Shown one piece after another: positions 10,553 through 33,700 of a DNA stretch of 64,000 bases. Both the position numbers and the translations under genes were made by a program. Every line of letters starts with the position of its first letter. The first letter of the stretch is position 1. Source of the stretch: Escherichia coli (lineage in GTDB: Bacteria; Pseudomonadota; Gammaproteobacteria; Enterobacterales; Enterobacteriaceae); assembly GCF_044647545.1 (NCBI RefSeq), contig NZ_CP172818.1; one strand, given 5' to 3'. Below the pieces are notes generated by a model. It searched no databases, had not been told where the DNA came from, and saw nothing but the letters and a program-made list of their open reading frames with translations.

Positions 10553-10559
10553 CTGTTGA

Positions 10560-11202
10560 TCTCGTTTCCCAGATCCAGCAGCTGCTGAGGTTGTCATAAA
10601 ACAGGCCGAAGCTAAACGTCATTGCGGCGGGTGATGGCTAATGGAATGTGTTGTACAGCGGGTCAGTACTCACGGCGTTGTAGCCCATCGCGTCGAGGTT
10701 ACGCATCTCGTAACGTTTACCGTTGCGTTGCAGGTCGCCGGCTTTATCTCCGAGGCCATAAAAGCGTTCATCTTTACGACGGCTCTGATAGTGCGCCACA
10801 CCGTCACCGTGGGCATTCAGCAGATAAGCGCTGGTCGGTCGGTCATTCACTAACGGCAGCCATTTCGTCTTCGTTGTTACTATAGTGCCACTCCAGCCAC
10901 AGCGGCTGGTGAACGGTGGACCAGTGACTCGGTGGCGATAACCACGGCGTTGTTGTGCTGGTTCAGGTTCATGCGGGCAGGCCAGCCGCTGGACATTTTG
11001 CCGGCCGCGCCCTTCCCGATGGCACATCCTGCTGGAGCAATGCTCCAGGTGCGATCCAGCGCCAGCTCGCCTTTGCGTTTTAACAGCACGCGGAACAGAA
11101 TTCCAGCACGTACAGACGCAATACGCCCGCCATCGACCAGCAGTTCAACGTGGTGGGCAGACTGTTTGAGGTCCAGTTTTTCAGCGTTTCGACGTTGCAC
11201 AT
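10560..11202 (-). pseudogene. Remnant of a glycoside hydrolase family 31 gene (alpha-glucosidase/alpha-xylosidase-like): 5' portion only, frameshifted and truncated at the ybiT junction
   Basis: Minus-strand fragments carry GH31 N-terminal-region signatures (...LDLKQSAHHVELLVDGGRIASV...; ...ERFYGLGDKAGDLQRNGKRYEMRNLDAMGY...), spread over at least two frames, and only about 210 codons remain of a family that is normally about 700-800 aa. Confidence 0.55.
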
Positions 11203-11207
11203 CACTC

Positions 11208-12445
11208 TCAGGCGCGTTTTGCGCGACGTTCAGCAATAAAGGTGACCAGGAAGAAAGCGCCAATCAGGTCAAAGAAGCCCATGGCGATAAACAGGGCTTA
11301 AAGCCGATTTTGTCAGCAGTAACCCCGATAATCAGGGAGAAACAGGAAACTTGCTATCGACGCGGCAGAACCGCGCATGCCGTTACAGTGGCCATCTGAC
11401 CTTTGTCGAGGATTCCACTACTAATGCGCTAAGCATGCAGGAGATGATCTGGTCAACCGAAGCCGCCTATGGAAGATAAGGACGATGGCGATATGGGTTA
11501 TCCAGAAAGGCCATCACCGCCAGCGAAACCATCAGGAATGCGCCACTGACCGATCTATGCGCAATGGAGTTCACACTGACTCAGCCCAAACAGGCGGGTG
11601 TAAAGTTTGGTCAGATAGCCGCTGGCAATACTGCCAAGATCAGCGGCGAAGGAACGGCAACCAGGCGAAAGAGTGCGATCTGCTTCAGGTCGATGCCATA
11701 GGCATCTGGACAGGTATAGCGGAACCCAGAAACTCATCACCGCCCACGCCGGTTCTGCCATAAAGGCTGGGATAGTGATACCGTAAAAGCGTTTATTTTT
11801 GCCCACGGTTTTCAGTGCGGTCAGAAAGGGTAACTTGACCGGGGAGCTTCGTTATCCTGGCGGAGCAACCAGCTTGGCTTCGCTGAAGGTCAGGATGCTT
11901 ATCCGGGTTGCGATAAAACCCACCACAGCACCACCCACAGCATCGCCAGGATGCCAGTGGCATAAATGCGCCCTGCCAGCGAATGAAGCGTGGGCAAAAT
12001 AGATAATCGGTGGGGCCAGCATGGCACCGATGGAGTCTACGTCTGCCCAGCGGCGATCGGGCGTTGCGATTTTGGAAACCATTCACCTCATAGTTTTGGG
12101 GTTTGCCGGGGTGGCCGCGGCTTCCGCACCGCCCGATAAAGAAGCGCAACAGCGCCAGATGTACCCAGTTTCCCGCCCCCGCATGCATCAGACAGGCCAG
12201 CGCCCACAGCCCCTGTGCAGATCAGAAGCCCAGTTTGAGGCCAATGACGTCAATGAGCCACCGCATAACGGTTGAAATAGGGTATAGGCGAGTTGGAAAG
12301 CACCTACAATCCAGGAATATTGTTTTGTGCAATCCCCAGGCTGCTTTTCAACTCGGCGTACACCCAGCGAATTACGTGTGATGTAGTTGACAGTAACACC
12401 GAGCAAAAAAAGGACCAGCATCCACCAACGCAGATTTTTGAACAC
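11208..12445 (-). pseudogene. Decayed MFS transporter gene (N-terminus resembles ExuT/DgoT-type anion:cation symporters), multiple frameshifts
   Basis: ORF 12188..12445 begins MFKNLRWWMLVLFLLGVTVNYITRN (MFS N-terminal TM1 pattern); a C-terminal piece ...ALFIAMGFFDLIGAFFLVTFIAERRAKRA ends at a stop at 11210..11208; the body is broken into ORFs under 135 aa in different frames. Confidence 0.5.
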
Positions 12446-12769
12446 CGGCGTGGTTTACTGGCAGTCATATCAATCGATACCCACTGATATGCACTCCACA
12501 GAATGGTATAGGGGGGCGGCAACGTCAGACGGAGTTGTCACACCACTTTTAACCTTTTGATAAATAAAGTCTTTATTGTCTGTTTTTCCATTGTTCTTGT
12601 ACTGGAAGTTGTTGTCACATTTTTACAGTAAGAGACACTAAAAGCGAAAAAGAAAGCGGGTTTTGTGCACGTTTTTCCATGCGGCCCATACATTACTGAA
12701 ATGGATTTAATGCCAGACAGAATGGGCTTTTTTTGCTCATGAAAATTCTGTCATTTCCGAATTAGAGGA

Positions 12770-13800
12770 CATCAGAAATCGGCAAAGAGCTTAAATTGCC
12801 GATATCGCCGCACGTACCGGATTATCGCCGATACGGTTTCGCGGGTGCTGCTGGCAAAGCGAATACCAGTGCACGCGCTCGCGAACAGGCGCTGGCCTGC
12901 GCGTGAGTTGGGCGCGATGGATGGCATGGCAGCAGGTCATGTTGCTGAATACAACTCATCATTTTGCGCCGCAACGCGCGTTTGACCAACGATCTGATAT
13001 CTTTTATTACCTGGTGTGATCCAGCATCAGCAAAGCGTTATCGCCCGCATGAAGTGCGGCTGCGTTACTGCGTGTTAAGGTAGTTCTACAGCTGATCCCT
13101 GGCGTGATCTGGCGGCATGAATGAAGCAGATACGCAGGCGGCGATCCTGCTGGGGATCGACGATCCGCACATCCATGATCTGGCCGCCGATCGCTAAGCC
13201 TTGCGCTGATCGACTGCTGGTGATGAACGAATGCGCCTCCCGACGATTGCGCCGGACCATCGGTTAATCGGCGTGTCTGCCGCCCGCTATCTGTTTGAAA
13301 TGGGTCACCGGGAGGTGATGAACGTTATGTGCCTGCGCTCGGCCACACTATGGAGCAGCGGTTTGCAGGGATCAAAGAATCATGGCGTCAGCATAATCTG
13401 GCCTTTCACCATGACCGTCATTTGCTGAATATCAGCAGTTTTCTCAGCGCTAAAGAAGCGGAAGAAGGTCGGAGCGCGGCCTGATGCCGCCAATGGCAAT
13501 ACGTTGCCGACGGCGTTTCTGGTCGGCGGGGATTTTTATGGCGGCGGGAACGGTAAATGCGCTACATCGTCGTGGTCTGCGCGTACCACAGGATGTCTCG
13601 GTGATGAGTATCGATGGTCTTCAATCTTGCGGCAATCGAGGATGTTCCCGACGGCTGTGACGTGCCACGCGATCAGCTAAGGGTTAAGTGGTGCAAATGT
13701 TGCAACAGCGGCTGATTCGCCGGATGTCTGCGGTGGGCTCGCTGCTGCTGCACGGACGATTAGCGGTGCGGACGCGCGGCGGTTGCCCAGGAAAAGGGAA
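12770..13800 (+). pseudogene. Decayed LacI-family transcriptional regulator gene, multiple frameshifts
   Basis: HTH-like IADIAARTGLSP continues in another frame as DTVSRVLLAK...ARELG; the C-terminal region contains ...GLRVPQDVSVMSIDG..., typical of LacI/GalR effector domains, but split across frames with stops. Confidence 0.5.
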
Positions 13801-13833
13801 CACCGCCGTGGAACGGGAAGGGCTGTACGACAA

Positions 13834-15102
13834 TCATTCCATTCCCAGCGCTCGCTTACCGTGAATGTTGAGGTCGGCAAGCGTAAAGCGTCCTTCCCAG
13901 TTTGTTTCATAGTCCTCGCGCGGGAAGTCGCCCGGCGATGCGCCTTTTTCCAGTGCGGCCTTCACCTTGTGCGCGTAGGCAAGATTTTTCTCGCACATCG
14001 GTGCCGCAGGAATGTACATCACGTTGCCCCAACCCTGTTGATTTTCAACGGGGGCAACGGAATGGATGACGTCGCAGTGCCACCAGACGGAGTCTCCGGC
14101 TTCGAGTTGTGGAATGCTGGTTAATGCCTCAATCAACAGTGGATGCCATTGCTCTGATACCGGCAACACTCTTCCGGGCGCTACGCCGCACAGTTCATCC
14201 TCCGGCACATCATCAAGCAGCGGACGTAACAGCACGTACGCCATGGCTTCAGGAATGGGCACGACGTGCAGCAGTCCCTGACCAGGCAGCATATCAGAGA
14301 GCGCTGTCCAGCCCTGGAATGTCCGAAACACGGAACATTTGGTGGTGTTGTCCACCGTGTACTCTTCAACTTCTGTACGATGTGCCGCATGCCAGGGATC
14401 ATATTGCGCCAGATTGCCATTAAAGACGTTGGCGAAAACGCGCTGATACGCTGGAAGCAGCCAGCGTTCCAGTGCCCCGGAGTCGGTATGCGCTCCGAGA
14501 CCTTTGGAGGCCGTTCCGGGCGGACGGCGGCGGATACGGTCAGGGTAGATGACGCTCACATCCGGGTTAAACCATTGCTTTCCATCACTTTCAAATGTCC
14601 ACAGACGATTGAGAAACGACTGCGCATTCGCCATTTCTTCACTCTGGCGGGCCTGCATTTGCGCCTGCGACCAGTAGATGGGGTAAATCTCGGGACGTGA
14701 AGCGCTGAGCGTCCCGAAGAAATTATCGCCGGGGCCTTTGTAGACCTCATCAAAGCGGTTGCGGTCCAGATAGTCCAGCATCGACTGATCCCAGCCTAGC
14801 GCTTGTTCGCGGGGGAAATGGCCTTTTATCACCGCACAACCGCGACGTTTAATCTGTTCGCGTTGCTCTGCAGTAACATGACCTGCTTTGATATCGGCAT
14901 AAGACAGCACCGGCCAGACTGCATCGCCCTGTGCTTTGAGTGCGTTGATTTCAGCCACTCGCGTGGCAATGTCATCGCTTAGCTGATTAAAGATCTGCTG
15001 GACGTCGCCAAGCTGCGCCCGCAGCGCGTGCTTCATCTGACGGATAGCTGCTTTGTGATCGGCAGGCAATGTGTTGCTGGTAAAAGTAGAAGCCATAACC
15101 AC
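13834..15102 (-). CDS. ybiU: DUF1479 family protein
   Basis: 422-aa intact ORF matching YbiU; the true start may be a few codons inside (MASTFTS...). Confidence 0.9.
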   Translation of the reverse strand: MVMASTFTSNTLPADHKAAIRQMKHALRAQLGDVQQIFNQLSDDIATRVAEINALKAQGDAVWPVLSYADIKAGHVTAEQREQIKRRGCAVIKGHFPREQALGWDQSMLDYLDRNRFDEVYKGPGDNFFGTLSASRPEIYPIYWSQAQMQARQSEEMANAQSFLNRLWTFESDGKQWFNPDVSVIYPDRIRRRPPGTASKGLGAHTDSGALERWLLPAYQRVFANVFNGNLAQYDPWHAAHRTEVEEYTVDNTTKCSVFRTFQGWTALSDMLPGQGLLHVVPIPEAMAYVLLRPLLDDVPEDELCGVAPGRVLPVSEQWHPLLIEALTSIPQLEAGDSVWWHCDVIHSVAPVENQQGWGNVMYIPAAPMCEKNLAYAHKVKAALEKGASPGDFPREDYETNWEGRFTLADLNIHGKRALGME

Positions 15103-20339: not shown

Positions 20340-20491
20340 CCGGACGTTCTGCATCCTCATCAATTGCTGATAACGTTGTGGAGTGCACCAAGCTTCCGCG
20401 CCTGAAATTCGCCCGAACTAGGCAGATAAGGTTACGCCGATTGGGTCTGAGAAAATTATCTGCCGCGACTTATCAGGCCTGGGGCTGGCAG

Positions 20492-22476: not shown

Positions 22477-22679
22477 GAAAACACTCCTGCGGAGGCAAAA
22501 TCGAATTTGCCTATTATGTCAGAAAAACGCCACAGACTGTATGCCACCTCGGGCGTAGCGTTGGCTCCTGCCTTTACATGCCATATCCATCTTTCTATAT
22601 TCAAAAATTGAATGAGTAATTCATAAAAATTCTGATATTTATAGCAAAAGTGGCGAGCCACCCTTAATGGACGAATACT

Positions 22680-23645
22680 ATGGGCAAAGCAGTCATTGCA
22701 ATTCATGGTGGCGCAGGTGCAATTAGCCGCGCGCAGATGAGTCTGCAACAGGAATTACGCTACATCGAGGCGCTGTCTGCCATTGTTGAAACCGGGCAGA
22801 AAATGCTGGAAGCGGGCGAAAGTGCGCTGAATGTGGTGACGGAAGCGGTGCGTCTGCTGGAAGAGTGTCCACTGTTTAACGCCGGAATTGGCGCTGTCTT
22901 TACGCGTGATGAAACCCATGAACTGGACGCCTGTGTGATGGATGGTAACACCCTGAAAGCCGGTGCGGTGGCGGGCGTTAGTCATCTGCGTAATCCGGTT
23001 CTTGCCGCCCGACTGGTGATGGAGCAAAGCCCGCATGTGATGATGATTGGCGAAGGGGCAGAAAATTTTGCGTTTGCTCATGGCATGGAGCGCGTCTCAC
23101 CGGAGATTTTCTCCACGCCTTTGCGTTATGAACAACTACTGGCAGCGCGCGAGGAAGGGGCAACAGTCCTCGACCATAGCGGTGCGCCACTGGATGAAAA
23201 ACAGAAAATGGGCACCGTGGGGGCCGTGGCGTTGGATTTAGACGGCAATCTGGCGGCAGCCACGTCCACGGGCGGAATGACCAATAAATTACCCGGACGA
23301 GTTGGCGATAGTCCCTTAGTGGGTGCCGGATGCTACGCCAATAACGCCAGTGTGGCAGTTTCTTGTACCGGCACGGGCGAAGTCTTCATCCGCGCGCTGG
23401 CGGCATATGACATCGCCGCGTTAATGGATTACGGCGGATTAAGTCTCGCGGAAGCCTGCGAGCGGGTAGTAATGGAAAAACTCCCTGCGCTTGGCGGTAG
23501 CGGTGGCTTAATCGCTATCGACCATGAAGGGAATGTCGCGCTACCGTTTAACACCGAAGGAATGTATCGCGCCTGGGGCTACGCAGGCGATACGCCAACC
23601 ACCGGTATCTACCGTGAAAAAGGGGACACCGTTGCCACACAGTGA
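22680..23645 (+). CDS. iaaA: Isoaspartyl dipeptidase / L-asparaginase (Ntn hydrolase)
   Basis: 321-aa ORF with the autoproteolytic GTVGAVALD motif; matches IaaA (YbiK). Confidence 0.9.
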
Positions 23646-25503
23646 TGAACTTGATGCCGGTGATGTGCTGGCGGTTGAAAATCTGAATATTGCCTTTATG
23701 CAGGACCAGCAGAAAATAGCTGCGGTCCGCAATCTCTCTTTTAGCCTGCAACGCGGTGAGACGCTGGCAATTGTTGGCGAATCCGGCTCCGGTAAGTCAG
23801 TGACTGCGCTGGCATTGATGCGTCTGTTGGAACAGGCGGGCGGTTTAGTACAGTGCGATAAAATGCTGTTGCGGCGGCGCAGTCGCGAAGTGATTGAACT
23901 TAGCGAGCAGAGCGCTGCACAAATGCGCCATGTGCGCGGTGCGGATATGGCGATGATATTTCAGGAACCGATGACATCGCTGAACCCGGTATTTACTGTG
24001 GGTGAACAGATTGCCGAATCAATTCGTCTGCATCAGAACGCCAGTCGTGAAGAAGCGATGGTCGAGGCGAAGCGGATGCTGGATCAGGTACGCATTCCGG
24101 AGGCACAAACCATTCTTTCACGTTATCCGCATCAACTCTCTGGCGGGATGCGCCAGCGAGTGATGATTGCGATGGCGCTGTCATGCCGCCCGGCGGTGCT
24201 GATTGCCGATGAGCCAACCACCGCGCTGGATGTCACTATTCAGGCGCAGATCCTGCAATTAATCAAAGTATTGCAAAAAGAGATGTCGATGGGCGTTATC
24301 TTTATCACTCACGATATGGGCGTGGTGGCAGAGATTGCCGATCGGGTACTGGTGATGTATCAGGGCGAGGCGGTGGAAACGGGTAGCGTCGAACAGATTT
24401 TTCATGCACCGCAACATCCTTACACCCGTGCGCTGTTAGCTGCTGTTCCGCAACTTGGTGCGATGAAAGGGTTAGATTATCCCCGACGTTTCCCATTGAT
24501 ATCGCTTGAACATCCAGCGAAACAGGAACCACCCATCGAGCAGAAAACGGTGGTGGATGGCGAACCTGTTTTACGGGTGCGTAATCTGGTCACCCGTTTC
24601 CCTTTGCGCAGCGGTTTGTTGAATCGCGTAACGCGGGAAGTGCATGCCGTTGAGAAAGTCAGTTTTGATCTCTGGCCTGGCGAAACGCTATCGCTGGTGG
24701 GCGAGTCTGGCAGCGGTAAATCCACTACCGGGCGGGCGTTGCTGCGCCTGGTCGAATCGCAGGGCGGCGAAATTATCTTTAACGGTCAGCGAATCGATAC
24801 CTTGTCATCCGGTAAACTTCAGGCATTGCGCCGCGATATTCAGTTTATTTTTCAGGACCCTTACGCTTCGCTGGACCCACGTCAGACCATCGGTGATTCG
24901 ATTATCGAACCGCTGCGCGTACACGGTTTATTGCCAGGTAAAGAAGCGGCTGCACGCGTTGCGTGGTTGCTGGAGCGCGTGGGCCTGTTACCGGAACATG
25001 CCTGGCGTTACCCGCATGAGTTTTCCGGCGGTCAGCGCCAGCGCATCTGCATTGCTCGCGCGTTGGCATTGAATCCAAAAGTGATCATTGCCGACGAAGC
25101 CGTCTCGGCGCTGGATGTATCTATTCGCGGGCAGATTATCAACTTGTTGCTCGATCTCCAGCGTGATTTCGGCATTGCGTATCTGTTTATCTCCCACGAT
25201 ATGGCCGTGGTAGAGCGGATTAGTCATCGTGTGGCGGTGATGTATCTCGGACAAATTGTTGAAATTGGTCCACGGCGCGCGGTCTTTGAAAATCCGCAGC
25301 ATCCTTATACGCGTAAATTACTGGCGGCAGTTCCGGTCGCTGAACCGTCCCGACAACGACCGCAGCGTGTACTGCTGTCGGACGATCTTCCCAGCAATAT
25401 TCATCTGCGTGGTGAAGAGGTTGTAGCCGTCTCGTTGCAATGCGTCGGGCCGGGGCATTACGTCGCACAACCACAATCAGAATACGCATTCATGCGTAGA
25501 TAA
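23632..25503 (+). CDS. gsiA: Glutathione ABC importer ATP-binding protein (two fused ABC domains)
   Basis: The track ORF 23524..25503 is over-extended; the recognised GsiA N-terminus (M)PHSDELDAG follows a TTG at 23632, overlapping the iaaA 3' end; two Walker A motifs (GESGSGKS, twice). Confidence 0.9.
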
Positions 25504-25522: not shown

Positions 25523-27061
25523 ATGGCAAGAGCTGTACACCGTAGTGGGTTAGTGGCGCTGGGCATTGCGACAGCGTTGATGGCATCTTGTGCATTCGCT
25601 GCCAAAGATGTGGTGGTGGCGGTAGGATCGAACTTCACCACGCTCGATCCATATGACGCGAATGACACGTTATCTCAGGCCGTAGCGAAATCGTTTTACC
25701 AGGGGCTGTTCGGTCTCGATAAAGAGATGAAACTGAAAAACGTGCTGGCGGAGAGTTATACCGTTTCCGATGACGGCCTTACTTACACCGTGAAACTGCG
25801 GGAAGGAATTAAATTCCAGGATGGAACCGACTTCAACGCAGCGGCGGTAAAAGCGAATCTGGACCGGGCCAGCGATCCGGCGAATCATCTTAAACGCTAC
25901 AACCTGTATAAGAATATTGCCAAAACGGAAGCGATCGATCCGACAACGGTAAAGATTACCCTCAAACAGCCGTTCTCAGCGTTTATTAATATTCTTGCCC
26001 ATCCGGCGACCGCGATGATTTCACCGGCAGCGCTGGAAAAATATGGCAAGGAGATTGGTTTTCATCCGGTGGGAACCGGGCCGTATGAACTGGATACCTG
26101 GAATCAGACCGATTTTGTGAAGGTGAAAAAATTCGCGGGTTACTGGCAGCCAGGATTGCCCAAACTGGACAGCATAACCTGGCGTCCGGTGGCGGATAAC
26201 AACACCCGCGCGGCCATGCTGCAAACCGGTGAAGCGCAGTTTGCTTTCCCCATTCCCTACGAGCAGGCCGCACTGCTGGAGAAAAACAAAAATATCGAGT
26301 TGATGGCCAGTCCGTCAATTATGCAGCGTTATATCAGTATGAACGTGACGCAAAAGCCGTTCGATAACCCGAAGGTCCGTGAGGCGCTGAATTACGCCAT
26401 TAACCGCCCGGCGCTGGTGAAAGTGGCCTTCGCGGGTTATGCAACGCCAGCTACTGGTGTGGTACCGCCGAGTATCGCCTACGCGCAAAGTTATAAACCG
26501 TGGCCTTACGATCCGGCGAAAGCGCGCGAATTACTGAAAGAGGCGGGATATCCCAACGGTTTCAGTACCACGCTGTGGTCGTCACATAACCACAGCACTG
26601 CGCAGAAAGTGCTGCAATTTACCCAGCAGCAGTTAGCGCAGGTCGGGATTAAAGCCCAGGTGACTGCGATGGATGCCGGACAGCGGGCGGCAGAAGTTGA
26701 AGGTAAAGGGCAAAAAGAGAGCGGCGTGCGGATGTTCTACACTGGCTGGTCGGCTTCAACCGGCGAAGCAGACTGGGCTCTATCGCCGCTGTTTGCCTCG
26801 CAGAACTGGCCACCGACGCTGTTTAATACCGCGTTTTACAGCAATAAACAGGTGGATGACTTCCTGGCTCAGGCATTGAAAACTAATGATCCGGCGGAAA
26901 AGACCCGTTTATATAAGGCGGCGCAGGATATCATCTGGCAAGAGTCGCCGTGGATCCCGCTGGTGGTAGAAAAACTGGTGTCGGCACACAGTAAAAACCT
27001 GACCGGTTTTTGGATCATGCCAGACACCGGCTTCAGCTTTGAAGACGCGGATTTGCAATAA
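25523..27061 (+). CDS. gsiB: Glutathione ABC importer periplasmic binding protein
   Basis: 512-aa ORF with signal peptide; family 5 solute-binding protein; matches GsiB. Confidence 0.95.
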
Positions 27062-27078: not shown

Positions 27079-27999
27079 ATGCTTAATTACGTTATCAAAC
27101 GCTTGCTGGGGTTGATTCCGACGCTGTTTATCGTCTCGGTGCTGGTGTTTTTATTTGTCCATATGCTGCCCGGCGATCCGGCGCGATTGATTGCCGGGCC
27201 CGAAGCTGATGCGCAGGTTATAGAACTGGTGCGTCAGCAGCTGGGGTTGGATCAGCCGCTGTATCACCAGTTCTGGCACTATATCAGCAATGCTGTGCAG
27301 GGGGATTTTGGCCTGGCGATGGTGTCGCGTCGTCCGGTTGGCGATGAGATTGCCAGCCGCTTTATGCCAACGCTGTGGCTGACCATAACCAGTATGGTCT
27401 GGGCGGTGATATTTGGTATGGCGGCGGGAATTATCGCCGCCGTCTGGCGTAATCGTTGGCCGGATCGATTGAGTATGACCATTGCGGTGTCGGGGATCTC
27501 GTTTCCGGCATTTGCTCTGGGGATGCTTTTAATTCAGGTATTCTCCGTTGAACTGGGCTGGCTGCCTACCGTGGGAGCAGACAGTTGGCAGCACTACATT
27601 TTACCCACCCTGACGCTCGGCGCGGCAGTGGCAGCCGTGATGGCGCGCTTTACCCGCGCGTCGTTTGTCGACGTTTTAAGCGAAGATTATATGCGTACCG
27701 CGAGGGCGAAAGGGGTGAGCGAAACCTGGGTTGTCCTCAAGCACGGGCTACGCAACGCGATGATCCCGGTAGTGACCATGATGGGCTTACAGTTTGGCTT
27801 TTTGCTCGGTGGTTCCATCGTGGTGGAGAAAGTTTTCAACTGGCCCGGACTTGGACGCTTACTCGTTGACTCCGTAGAAATGCGCGATTACCCGGTGATT
27901 CAGGCGGAAATTCTGCTTTTCTCGCTGGAATTTATTCTTATCAACTTAGTGGTGGATGTGCTTTACGCCGCCATTAACCCGGCTATCAGGTACAAGTAA
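27079..27999 (+). CDS. gsiC: Glutathione ABC importer permease
   Basis: 306-aa DppB-like permease ORF; operon position. Confidence 0.95.
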
Positions 28000-28001
28000 G
28001 G

Positions 28002-28913
28002 ATGCGACTATTTAACTGGCGACGTCAGGCGGTGTTAAACGCCATGCCACTGGTCAAACCTGACCAGGTACGTACACCGTGGCATGAATTCTGGCGACGA
28101 TTTCGCCGTCAGCATATGGCGATGACCGCCGCATTGTTCGTTATTTTATTGATTGTGGTGGCCATTTTTGCACGCTGGATTGCTCCCTATGACGCCGAAA
28201 ATTATTTTGATTATGACAATCTGAATAACGGACCTTCTTTGCAGCACTGGTTTGGCGTCGATTCACTGGGGCGTGACATTTTCAGCCGTGTCCTGGTTGG
28301 TGCGCAAATCTCGCTGGCGGCGGGCGTGTTTGCCGTGTTTATCGGTGCGGCGATCGGGACGTTGCTGGGCTTGCTGGCTGGATATTATGAAGGCTGGTGG
28401 GATCGGCTGATCATGCGCATTTGCGATGTGCTGTTTGCCTTCCCGGGTATTTTACTGGCGATCGCTGTTGTTGCGGTGTTGGGAAGCGGCATTGCTAACG
28501 TGATTATCGCAGTCGCCATTTTTTCCATCCCCGCGTTTGCCCGACTGGTGCGCGGCAACACGCTGGTGTTGAAACAGCAAACCTTTATTGAGTCAGCACG
28601 CAGTATTGGTGCCAGCGATATGACCATTTTATTGCGTCATATCCTGCCTGGGACCGTCTCTTCTATCGTGGTGTTTTTCACCATGCGCATTGGTACCTCG
28701 ATTATCTCTGCCGCCAGCCTGTCATTTCTCGGCCTCGGTGCGCAGCCGCCGACACCAGAGTGGGGAGCAATGCTCAATGAGGCACGAGCGGATATGGTTA
28801 TCGCGCCGCATGTCGCTGTTTTTCCGGCCCTGGCTATTTTTCTGACCGTACTGGCGTTCAATTTGTTGGGCGATGGTTTACGCGATGCGCTGGATCCGAA
28901 AATTAAAGGATAG
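28002..28913 (+). CDS. gsiD: Glutathione ABC importer permease
   Basis: 303-aa DppC-like permease ORF; operon position. Confidence 0.95.
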
Positions 28914-32779: not shown

Positions 32780-33700
32780 ATATTATACCCCTTAATCAAG
32801 GGTACTAATGAATTGGTAAATCATTTCAAACATTTTACTTTGCAAAAACTTCCGGCCCTTTTATTCCAATGTATTCAAAAAACGCAATGCCGGCCCCTTC
32901 TTTTTTTTTCTTTTCCTCCCCTTTTCTAAAACTTTTTTTTTTAAATTCCCTTTTGTTCCAAAACCGGGTGGATGCCCCGTCCGGCGGGCCTTTTTCTCTT
33001 CTCCCCCCTTTGTTTTTGTTTTGCTTATGGGCCGCACTCTCGGGTTTGTGACTTAAGGGGAAGGACAAACTTCCAAACAACAAACAGACCCACATTTCTT
33101 TCCTTTCTTTTCAATTTAATTTTTTTTTTTTTCTCCCAAAAAAAAAACAAATTCAAAAAAAATCTTTTTTTATTGCTAAAGGCCAGAAATGCATTTGCCA
33201 TTTTTTTGTAGGCCGCCAGTTCATCATCTTCGATTTCTTTGGTTCCTTTACTACTTAGACCACTCTTGGACCAACCATCATAAAAAAACACATGATTTGC
33301 TGATTTAAAAAAAATAATTTTTTTGCCTCCCCCTCTTTCTTTTTGAGGGGGAAATTTTTTTTAAGAACACCCCAACCTAAATCACCCTCCCATATGCCCT
33401 CCATCACTTCTCCAGCGCAAGCCATAAAAATTTTATATTAAAAACCAAGTTTTTTTTGTTTTGCGGAATCTTTCCCTTATACACACCCATACACCCATCT
33501 TTTGTTATTGTTTATATTATAAAAATTATTCTTTTTTAAAAAAAATTGAAAAAAAAAATTTATTTTGGAAAAAAAAAGGAGGGTTGCCCGAAGGTTTTTT
33601 TTTTTTTGATTTATGGGGGGGATTTTTGGGAAGGAAAGGAAAGGGGGGAGGGAAGGAGAGGAAGAAAAAAAAAAAATTAATTTAGATTTCTGCCTTAAGA
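32780..33700. other. Low-complexity, homopolymer-rich non-coding tract between convergent dgcI and rimO; origin unclear (possible assembly artefact or foreign/synthetic insert)
   Basis: Runs of at least 10 T, at least 10 A and 7 G, plus GA-rich and CT-rich blocks (e.g. ggaaggaaaggaaaggggggagggaaggagagg); only short Lys/Phe/Gly-rich ORFs; unlike the surrounding E. coli sequence. Confidence 0.6.

Follow-up and report, generated by a model that had tools for sequence, protein, structure and literature searches.

The junction between iaaA and gsiA in Escherichia coli raises two connected questions, namely at which codon the translation of gsiA begins, and whether the short overlap that follows from this start means that translation of the second gene is coupled to translation of the first. 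We examined them in a stretch of 64,000 nucleotides of E. coli DNA (contig NZ_CP172818.1), called the window below, and all positions refer to this window. The upstream gene iaaA (22680-23645, plus strand) encodes an isoaspartyl / beta-aspartyl peptidase of 321 aa that ends in ...GDTVATQ with the stop codon TGA at 23643-23645, and gsiA (23632-25503, plus strand) encodes the fused double ATPase of the glutathione ABC importer, 623 aa long when counted from a TTG. IaaA matches the NCBIfam equivalog NF007589 over its full length (1-321 of 321; 711.8 bits, cutoff 567) as well as identical or near-identical PDB chains of EcAIII (2zak, 1jn9, 1k2x and 7qq8; residues 1/2-178 and 179-321), and the N-terminal peptide of K-12 IaaA is reported in a section of a published N-terminomics data set (PMC13245402). 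The operon context is supplied by gsiB (25523-27061), gsiC (27079-27999) and gsiD (28002-28913), which lie downstream of gsiA in the same orientation. A sigma-70-like promoter match (TTTACA-17-TATATT, 22573-22601, plus strand; 10/12 matches in a consensus scan) in the moeA-iaaA spacer is a candidate operon promoter, from a scan whose match count in this region is no higher than in shuffled sequences. We consider that the junction is very probably an ordinary one between the first two genes of an iaaA-gsiABCD operon. As a side observation, about 67 of 80 loci, some of Burkholderiales and Rhizobiales among them, have iaaA as the immediate upstream neighbour of gsiA. The segment 23300-24000 is 100% identical to E. 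coli FDAARGOS_497, and the rest of the window differs from this genome only in three patches rich in indels and in a missing prophage.

The question of the start arises from the reading frames. The frame of gsiA opens after a TAA at 23509-23511 (i.e. it is open from 23512) and its first ATG is at 23524, from which a mechanical open reading frame of 659 aa runs to 25503 and exceeds the 623-aa gsiA by 36 codons. We regard this 5' extension (23524-23631, plus strand) as non-coding in the gsiA frame and coding in the iaaA frame only. Direct reading of the sequence places the codon starts of iaaA at 0 mod 3 and those of gsiA at 1 mod 3, so that the 14 shared nucleotides (23632-23645, plus strand) are read in different frames, as ...V-A-T-Q-stop in iaaA (frame 0) and as fM-P-H-S-D in gsiA (frame +1). 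The initial annotation had placed the end of iaaA at 23645 and the TTG of gsiA at 23632, with a 14-nt overlap in different frames, and all of these coordinates are correct.

Five in-frame ATG, GTG or TTG candidates between the upstream stop and Val12 were compared with respect to their ribosome-binding sites. The TTG at 23632-23634 (plus strand) has the Shine-Dalgarno (SD) sequence AAGGGG (23620-23625, plus strand), within the iaaA codons Lys-Gly-Asp, about 5-6 nt ahead of it, and the corresponding anti-SD duplex of -7.8 kcal/mol is the best among the in-frame candidates. The other four have values of -1.5 to -4.8 kcal/mol, and the site at -4.8 and one of the two sites at -3.0 kcal/mol have unusable spacings (0 and 2 nt, respectively). 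A calculation of ribosome-binding strength upstream of 23632, which the initial annotation had proposed as a check, thus leaves the TTG as the only one of the five candidates with a good SD. In the whole window, both strands included, an SD of -7.8 kcal/mol or lower at 4-9 nt is found for only 46 of 5883 ATG/GTG/TTG triplets (0.78%), so the signal in front of the TTG goes beyond what is expected by chance. AAGGAG or AAGGGG is kept at the homologous place across Enterobacteriaceae. A crude thermodynamic estimate of the initiation rate classified the TTG as a weak site, and we give it no weight as it ranks gsiC and gsiD poorly in comparison with published INRI-seq data.

The comparative material consists of 80 gsiA loci from 80 species found in a genome scan, 83 loci being analysed in all. 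In 26 species-level loci, including an E. coli genome identical to the window, the start with the best SD in front of it falls at the shared position, 33 nt before Val12, and the homologous codon is TTG (8 loci), GTG (9) or ATG (9) and never a non-start codon. The TTG-bearing loci belong to Escherichia, Citrobacter, Superficieibacter and Pseudocitrobacter. The residues P-H-S-D-E-L that follow the start are conserved with synonymous third-position changes, also in species in which gsiA does not overlap iaaA. Upstream of the start the pattern is that of the other gene: in the stretch of 40 iaaA codons up to 23618 there are 11, 12 and 38 variable columns on iaaA positions 1, 2 and 3, respectively, and since the third positions of iaaA vary most, it is the second position of the gsiA frame that is most variable there. 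Identity drops to 31-64% when this region is translated in the gsiA frame, versus 75-97% in the iaaA frame. A stop codon 42-48 nt upstream of Val12, i.e. 3-5 codons before the start, interrupts the gsiA frame in Enterobacter, Lelliottia, Cedecea and Siccibacter. Within the species, at least 5129 of 5425 complete E. coli genomes carry the 61-mer 23600-23660, with SD, TTG and TGA, unchanged.

Family models and existing annotation point to the same codon, even though both the annotation and the NCBIfam model depend to some degree on the start that people had earlier chosen for K-12. Positions 1-623 of the NCBIfam equivalog NF007613 align to residues 37-659 of the long open reading frame, i.e. from the TTG codon onward (1377.4 bits, cutoff 1077). 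Solved ABC ATPase domains align with GsiA from residue 9-13 onward, and their chains add only 3-4 residues ahead of this point, so a lead of 11 residues fits this family while a lead of 47 residues does not. RefSeq starts gsiA at the TTG in all four E. coli genomes sampled, under four different protein accessions; in the matching genome the coordinates are 23632-25503, those of iaaA agree as well in this genome and in the next two, and in the fourth genome the TTG is the same and iaaA is one codon shorter, which gives an overlap of 11 nt. In K-12 (NC_000913.3) iaaA begins at 866568 (966 nt) and gsiA at 867520, which gives the same overlap of 14 nt, and the INRI-seq oligo for b0829 carries the TTG 30 nt into the insert (PMC9825163). 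The pair b0828 iaaA / b0829 gsiA is listed at a distance of -14 in the supplementary gene-pair table of Huber et al. 2023 (PMC10666635). The TTG start and the overlap with iaaA are therefore already known from RefSeq, from K-12 and from a published catalogue; a direct statement on the start codon of gsiA was not found in our literature search. From the SD, the interchange of start codons, the frame-specific substitutions, the boundary of the family profile and the existing annotation we conclude, with a probability of about 0.9, that gsiA starts at the TTG at 23632 and that the open reading frame from 23524 is over-extended; both had been proposed in the initial annotation, and the same lines of evidence speak for both.

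The comparison of junctions suggests how the overlap came about. In Leclercia, Enterobacter, Lelliottia, Phytobacter, Superficieibacter, Pseudocitrobacter, Siccibacter and related MAGs, the alignment and the junction table show iaaA ending in GIYRE followed by TAA-GG(A/G)G. The stop codon of iaaA is in these genomes the first part of a TAAGGAG or TAAGGGG ribosome-binding site, and gsiA begins +9 to +13 nt later. Escherichia and Citrobacter have AAA at this place (23619-23621, plus strand; Lys314 of iaaA in the window), where most other Enterobacteriaceae have the TAA stop, and as a consequence iaaA is longer by eight codons (KGDTVATQ) and stops only at a TGA inside gsiA codons 4-5. Other Enterobacterales have iaaA-gsiA junctions of -1, -4 or -8. 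Escherichia and Citrobacter are sister clades in a neighbour-joining tree of GsiA and are surrounded by lineages with TAA, and one stop-loss event would be enough for the sampled taxa, its direction being given by parsimony. Salmonella and Klebsiella are absent from the 80 loci, so that the single-event stop loss rests on incomplete sampling. Salmonella IaaA, which we take to be 313 aa long, would retain the TAA, and this would complicate a single-event history.

The added tail of IaaA appears to be under little constraint. In E. coli 23CRST011 a CAG to TAG change, synonymous in the frame of gsiA, ends IaaA at 320 aa and leaves an overlap of 11 nt, i.e. the tail of iaaA is free to vary while the codons of gsiA are kept. 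The beta chain of PDB entry 2zal is listed only to residue 315, which is compatible with a dispensable tail and is no demonstration of one. The overlap in Escherichia and Citrobacter is, as judged from these sequences, a derived and probably neutral feature: it is accounted for by a single stop-codon change, and selection for coupling is therefore not needed to explain it. On this view a stop codon embedded in a ribosome-binding site turned into a sense codon in one lineage and left the 14-nt overlap as a by-product, which is a small evolutionary addition to what is known of this locus.

The initial annotation had further taken the overlap to imply translational coupling of iaaA to the glutathione importer operon, which the overlap alone does not show. 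The two genes are co-directional and their coding sequences overlap, leaving no room between them for a terminator or a promoter. No plus-strand terminator-like site was found at the junction, the nearest plus-strand matches being inside iaaA near 22880 and 23215. The overlap guarantees co-transcription through the junction; it does not guarantee coupling, and the distance of -14, an ancestral junction of the presumed independently initiating class and the sufficiency of the stop-codon change weigh against reading coupling from it. Distances of -8 to +10 are treated as predictive of termination-reinitiation (PMC10666635), and the stop-start distance of -14 lies outside the short window for efficient reinitiation (-8 to about +6/+10). 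According to the same study the common overlaps are -4, -1 and -8, longer ones are several-fold rarer, with the -8/-11/-14 phase commoner among them, and junctions of +9 to +12 with an SD in the spacer are thought to initiate independently; 203 gene pairs of K-12 belong to this '+10 nt' class, with the SD in a spacer of 9-12 nt (PMC10666635). Under these classes the ancestral iaaA-gsiA junction falls into the independent class and the derived -14 junction falls outside the efficient window. Coupling has moreover been described, with reference to Tian and Salis, as becoming progressively weaker with longer overlaps between -4 and -25 nt (PMC12548453). No reporter-fusion data on a dependence of gsiA translation on iaaA were found in the literature search.

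In the mechanism that we propose, initiation of GsiA at the TTG would be guided by the AAGGGG at 23620-23625 in the last codons of iaaA, while iaaA terminates at the TGA at 23643-23645. Initiation of gsiA would be mainly SD-directed, and ribosomes that finish iaaA may add a modest contribution, either by stepping back a few nucleotides and reinitiating or by opening up local structure. The weak TTG together with the local structure may keep GsiA synthesis low. Some coupling is plausible, and we expect it to be partial at most.

The strongest competitor of SD-directed initiation is obligate coupling, in which GsiA synthesis would depend largely or wholly on ribosomes coming straight from iaaA, and we consider it unlikely. 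It could work by two routes, i.e. reinitiation 11-14 nt back from the TGA, or melting of a stem by iaaA translation. This predicted 10-bp stem (23600-23609 with 23653-23662; 23600-23662, plus strand) belongs to the minimum-free-energy fold and encloses the SD and the TTG, so that a weak start codon would lie in a fold that is predicted to be stable (-23.7 kcal/mol for -35..+35 and -9.7 kcal/mol for -30..+15). The z-score of the fold is, however, only -1.89, with 7 of 200 shuffled sequences folding as well, and the 10-bp stem is not conserved in E. albertii, Citrobacter or the others compared. Its significance is thus doubtful as far as folding predictions can tell, and a conserved RNA structure as a coupling device was dismissed on these two grounds. 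A second argument for obligate coupling is that the two genes are closely spaced throughout Enterobacterales (-14, -8, -4, -1 or +9 to +13), and that the -8/-11/-14 phase is the commoner one among long overlaps; on the other side, -14 is beyond the -8 to +10 window, the efficiency of coupling drops with overlap length and is absent at -25 (PMC12548453), and the ancestral +10 class is considered an independent initiator. A strong SD is kept in every lineage, which suits de novo initiation, and the iaaA/gsiA pair is marked as not forming a complex (PMC10666635), i.e. IaaA and GsiA are not subunits of one assembly.

The third argument comes from published experiments. In INRI-seq the isolated initiation region of gsiA (-30 onward) gave 0 CPM in five of five replicates, and the in vivo Ribo-RET signal at the gsiA start was also 0 (PMC9825163 Table S2), while gsiB, gsiC and gsiD were detected by INRI-seq (PMC9825163). 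A gsiA region that is silent when separated from iaaA is what obligate coupling would predict, and the zeros of both methods also count against the TTG start itself. Nevertheless, INRI-seq confirms about 70% of the annotated starts and misses about 30%, including secA, thrB and leuA (PMC9825163), which makes the null result for gsiA weak. The section of the N-terminomics table mentioned above (PMC13245402) has no GsiA entry. gsiA is probably poorly expressed or poorly initiated under the conditions of these data sets.

One may also speculate that the stop loss itself had a regulatory consequence. By placing the ribosome-binding site of gsiA inside translated iaaA, and in combination with the lineage-specific stem of E. 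coli, it could have allowed iaaA translation to gate GsiA synthesis by unmasking or occluding the site, unlike in the relatives with +10 junctions, and the zero in vitro would then be a real consequence of this arrangement. We find this idea improbable, more so than obligate coupling.

The remaining alternatives concern the start codon itself and survive far less well than those above. A start at the GTG at 23665 (Val12) or at the ATG at 23698 (Met23), neither of which would overlap iaaA, is very improbable. The GTG is located exactly where homology to other ABC ATPases begins, and the codon is GTG in 53 of the 83 loci; in the other 30, one Escherichia and two Citrobacter among them, the Val12 codon is GTA, GTC, GTT, GCC or AGC, and its SD is poor (-3.0 kcal/mol, spacing 2). 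With the ATG as start, GsiA would lack the first beta-strand of its ATPase domain, a strand that can be aligned to solved structures. Both are at odds with the conservation of residues 2-8 (PHSDELD) with synonymous changes, also where these lie outside iaaA, and with INRI-seq, which gave no alternative start for b0829 despite both codons being present on the oligo (PMC9825163).

Weakest of all is an N-terminally extended gsiA from the ATG at 23524 (659 aa) or the ATG at 23533 (656 aa), with the TTG as an internal Leu codon: in its favour, ATG is preferred over other start codons, no stop interrupts the frame from 23512 onward, and both codons are absent from the INRI-seq oligo and hence were outside the in vitro assay, but neither has a usable SD (23524: -1.5 kcal/mol, spacing 16; 23533: -4.8 kcal/mol, spacing 0), the ATG at 23524 is missing in E. 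albertii, Leclercia, Enterobacter and others, the NF007613 profile does not reach 23524-23631, an internal Leu codon would not switch among TTG, GTG and ATG alone, and, on the sequence comparison, the stop codons that close the frame just before the TTG position in several genera and the substitutions that strike second positions of the gsiA frame most already contradict an upstream start, which we hold to be the least probable of the readings. The GTG at 23614, considered together with these two ATGs, was rejected as well, as all of them have no SD or the wrong spacing and vary already within Escherichia, and stop codons close the frame in several genera.

Two further readings of the region were discarded. 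An IaaA-GsiA fusion by +1 frameshifting, conceivable as 40 codons without a stop precede the TTG in the gsiA frame, would need a slippery motif, and none is present in the right frame; the frame relation is not conserved, Enterobacter and Lelliottia having a 1-nt indel and a stop, and 40 stop-free codons in an alternative frame are not unusual (roughly 15% by a rough estimate). A minus-strand terminator-like hairpin at 23644-23627 is a chance match that needs a minus-only G-U pair, in a scan with match counts near the shuffle expectation.

As far as its practical meaning is concerned, the TTG start shows that a track which simply takes the longest ORF makes gsiA 36 codons too long, and that comparative evidence supports the start in the databases well, which matters little beyond housekeeping. 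Coupling, if true, would bear on the co-expression of IaaA and the importer ATPase in sulfur limitation, and no open question hinges on it. The junction is a clean example of why an overlap by itself is no evidence for selected translational coupling.

It is instructive to compare the iaaA-gsiA junction with known systems. Firstly, the b0828/b0829 junction of K-12 (NC_000913.3, RefSeq, EcoCyc) has the same TTG start, a GsiA of 623 aa, an IaaA of 321 aa and the 14-nt overlap, and differs from the junction described here in strain-level substitutions elsewhere only; at residue 11, for instance, GsiA has Asp here, where E. coli B and K-12 have Asn. Secondly, the short overlaps that are associated with reinitiation (-4 ATGA, -1 TGATG/TAATG, and -8; Huber et al. 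2019, 2023; Brown and Wade 2025) share with iaaA-gsiA the co-directional genes on one transcript, the start codon inside the end of the upstream gene and the SD within the upstream coding sequence, and iaaA-gsiA is in the same phase as the -8/-11/-14 overlaps. The difference is that its overlap is 14 nt long, that the stop and the start codon do not touch, and that the products do not belong to one complex. Thirdly, the '+10 nt' junctions of E. coli resemble iaaA-gsiA as it is found in most Enterobacteriaceae, with a gap of +9 to +13 and the TAA inside TAAGGAG. The SD and the start of E. coli gsiA are homologous to those of this arrangement, and what differs is that the stop reads AAA in Escherichia and Citrobacter and the spacer has turned into eight codons of iaaA. 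Finally, overlaps formed by loss of the upstream stop codon, i.e. by 3' extension, are a commonly described route to short overlaps on one strand, and the same appears to hold here, where a one-base difference between TAA and AAA explains the whole overlap. As in other overlaps of this origin, the tail added to iaaA is short, variable and absent from the relatives, and in this respect there is nothing unusual about the locus.

The 14-nt overlap of iaaA (22680-23645) and gsiA (23632-25503, TTG start) has no parallel among the other same-strand junctions annotated nearby, which lie at distances of -4 (mntR/ybiR) and -1 (moeA/moeB and ybjJ/ybjI). Since these are the usual values, the -14 of iaaA-gsiA is locally the odd one. 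A longer overlap, of 34 nt, is found in the annotation of the reference strain FDAARGOS_497 in the region corresponding to 13806-13839, where a LacI-family gene and ybiU are convergent. As regards initiation in the neighbouring genes, in-vitro mapping in K-12 by INRI-seq gave peaks at two alternative ATT starts, one in frame and 15 nt inside iaaA (22694 in the window, K-12 866582), the other out of frame and 8 nt inside gsiD (near 28009, K-12 871897), and the annotated ATG of iaaA was not detected in 4 of 5 replicates (PMC9825163).

The comparison with FDAARGOS_497 also revealed differences elsewhere in the window. Between ybiT and ybiU there is a decayed island remnant (10553-13833) with traces of a GH31 glycosidase, an MFS transporter and a LacI regulator, which contains no ORF longer than 155 aa. 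The remnant is 92% identical to its FDAARGOS_497 counterpart and 1.9 kb shorter, the differences including evenly scattered indels of 1-5 nt (54 deletion runs, 32 insertion runs), and its best match among 5426 complete E. coli genomes does not exceed 92.2%. On either side of the remnant the window matches FDAARGOS_497 at 100% identity, and such a pattern of small indels between identical flanks is not what ordinary divergence yields. Many small deletions and substitutions also set the fsa-moeB spacer (around 20395-20470) apart from FDAARGOS_497, which has a REP-like palindromic element there, again within sequence that is otherwise 100% identical. The HTH antitoxin/RelE-ParE toxin pair between dgcI and rimO (around 32800-33700) is 78% identical to that of FDAARGOS_497, with 78 gap positions, and its ORFs are truncated to 86 and 88 aa, as compared to CDSs of 330 and 387 nt in the reference strain. 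Finally, the P2-like prophage (integrase, CI, CII, Fil) located next after rcdA in FDAARGOS_497 is missing from the window, which from about 44984 onward carries the core genes ybjL, potFGHI and rlmC instead, at 100% identity to other strains.

The iaaA-gsiA junction itself varies among the gsiA loci compared. E. coli 23CRST011 carries a natural CAG to TAG change at the site corresponding to 23640-23642, which shortens IaaA to 320 aa and the overlap to 11 nt, and is synonymous (His) in gsiA. In Enterobacter sp. BIGb0383 (L009) and in a MAG (L046), iaaA is absent or fragmentary 5' of gsiA, the fragment in the MAG comprising residues 275-316 only. Both loci keep the final iaaA codons, the SD and the gsiA start, therefore the junction outlasts the loss of iaaA. 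In about 67 of the 80 species loci (L004-L083) a same-strand iaaA homologue lies immediately 5' of gsiA, and this adjacency, present in Enterobacterales, extends as far as Burkholderiales (Achromobacter, Bordetella, Paraburkholderia and Variovorax) and Rhizobiales. The conserved linkage of peptidase and importer is thus far broader than the E. coli operon by itself would suggest.
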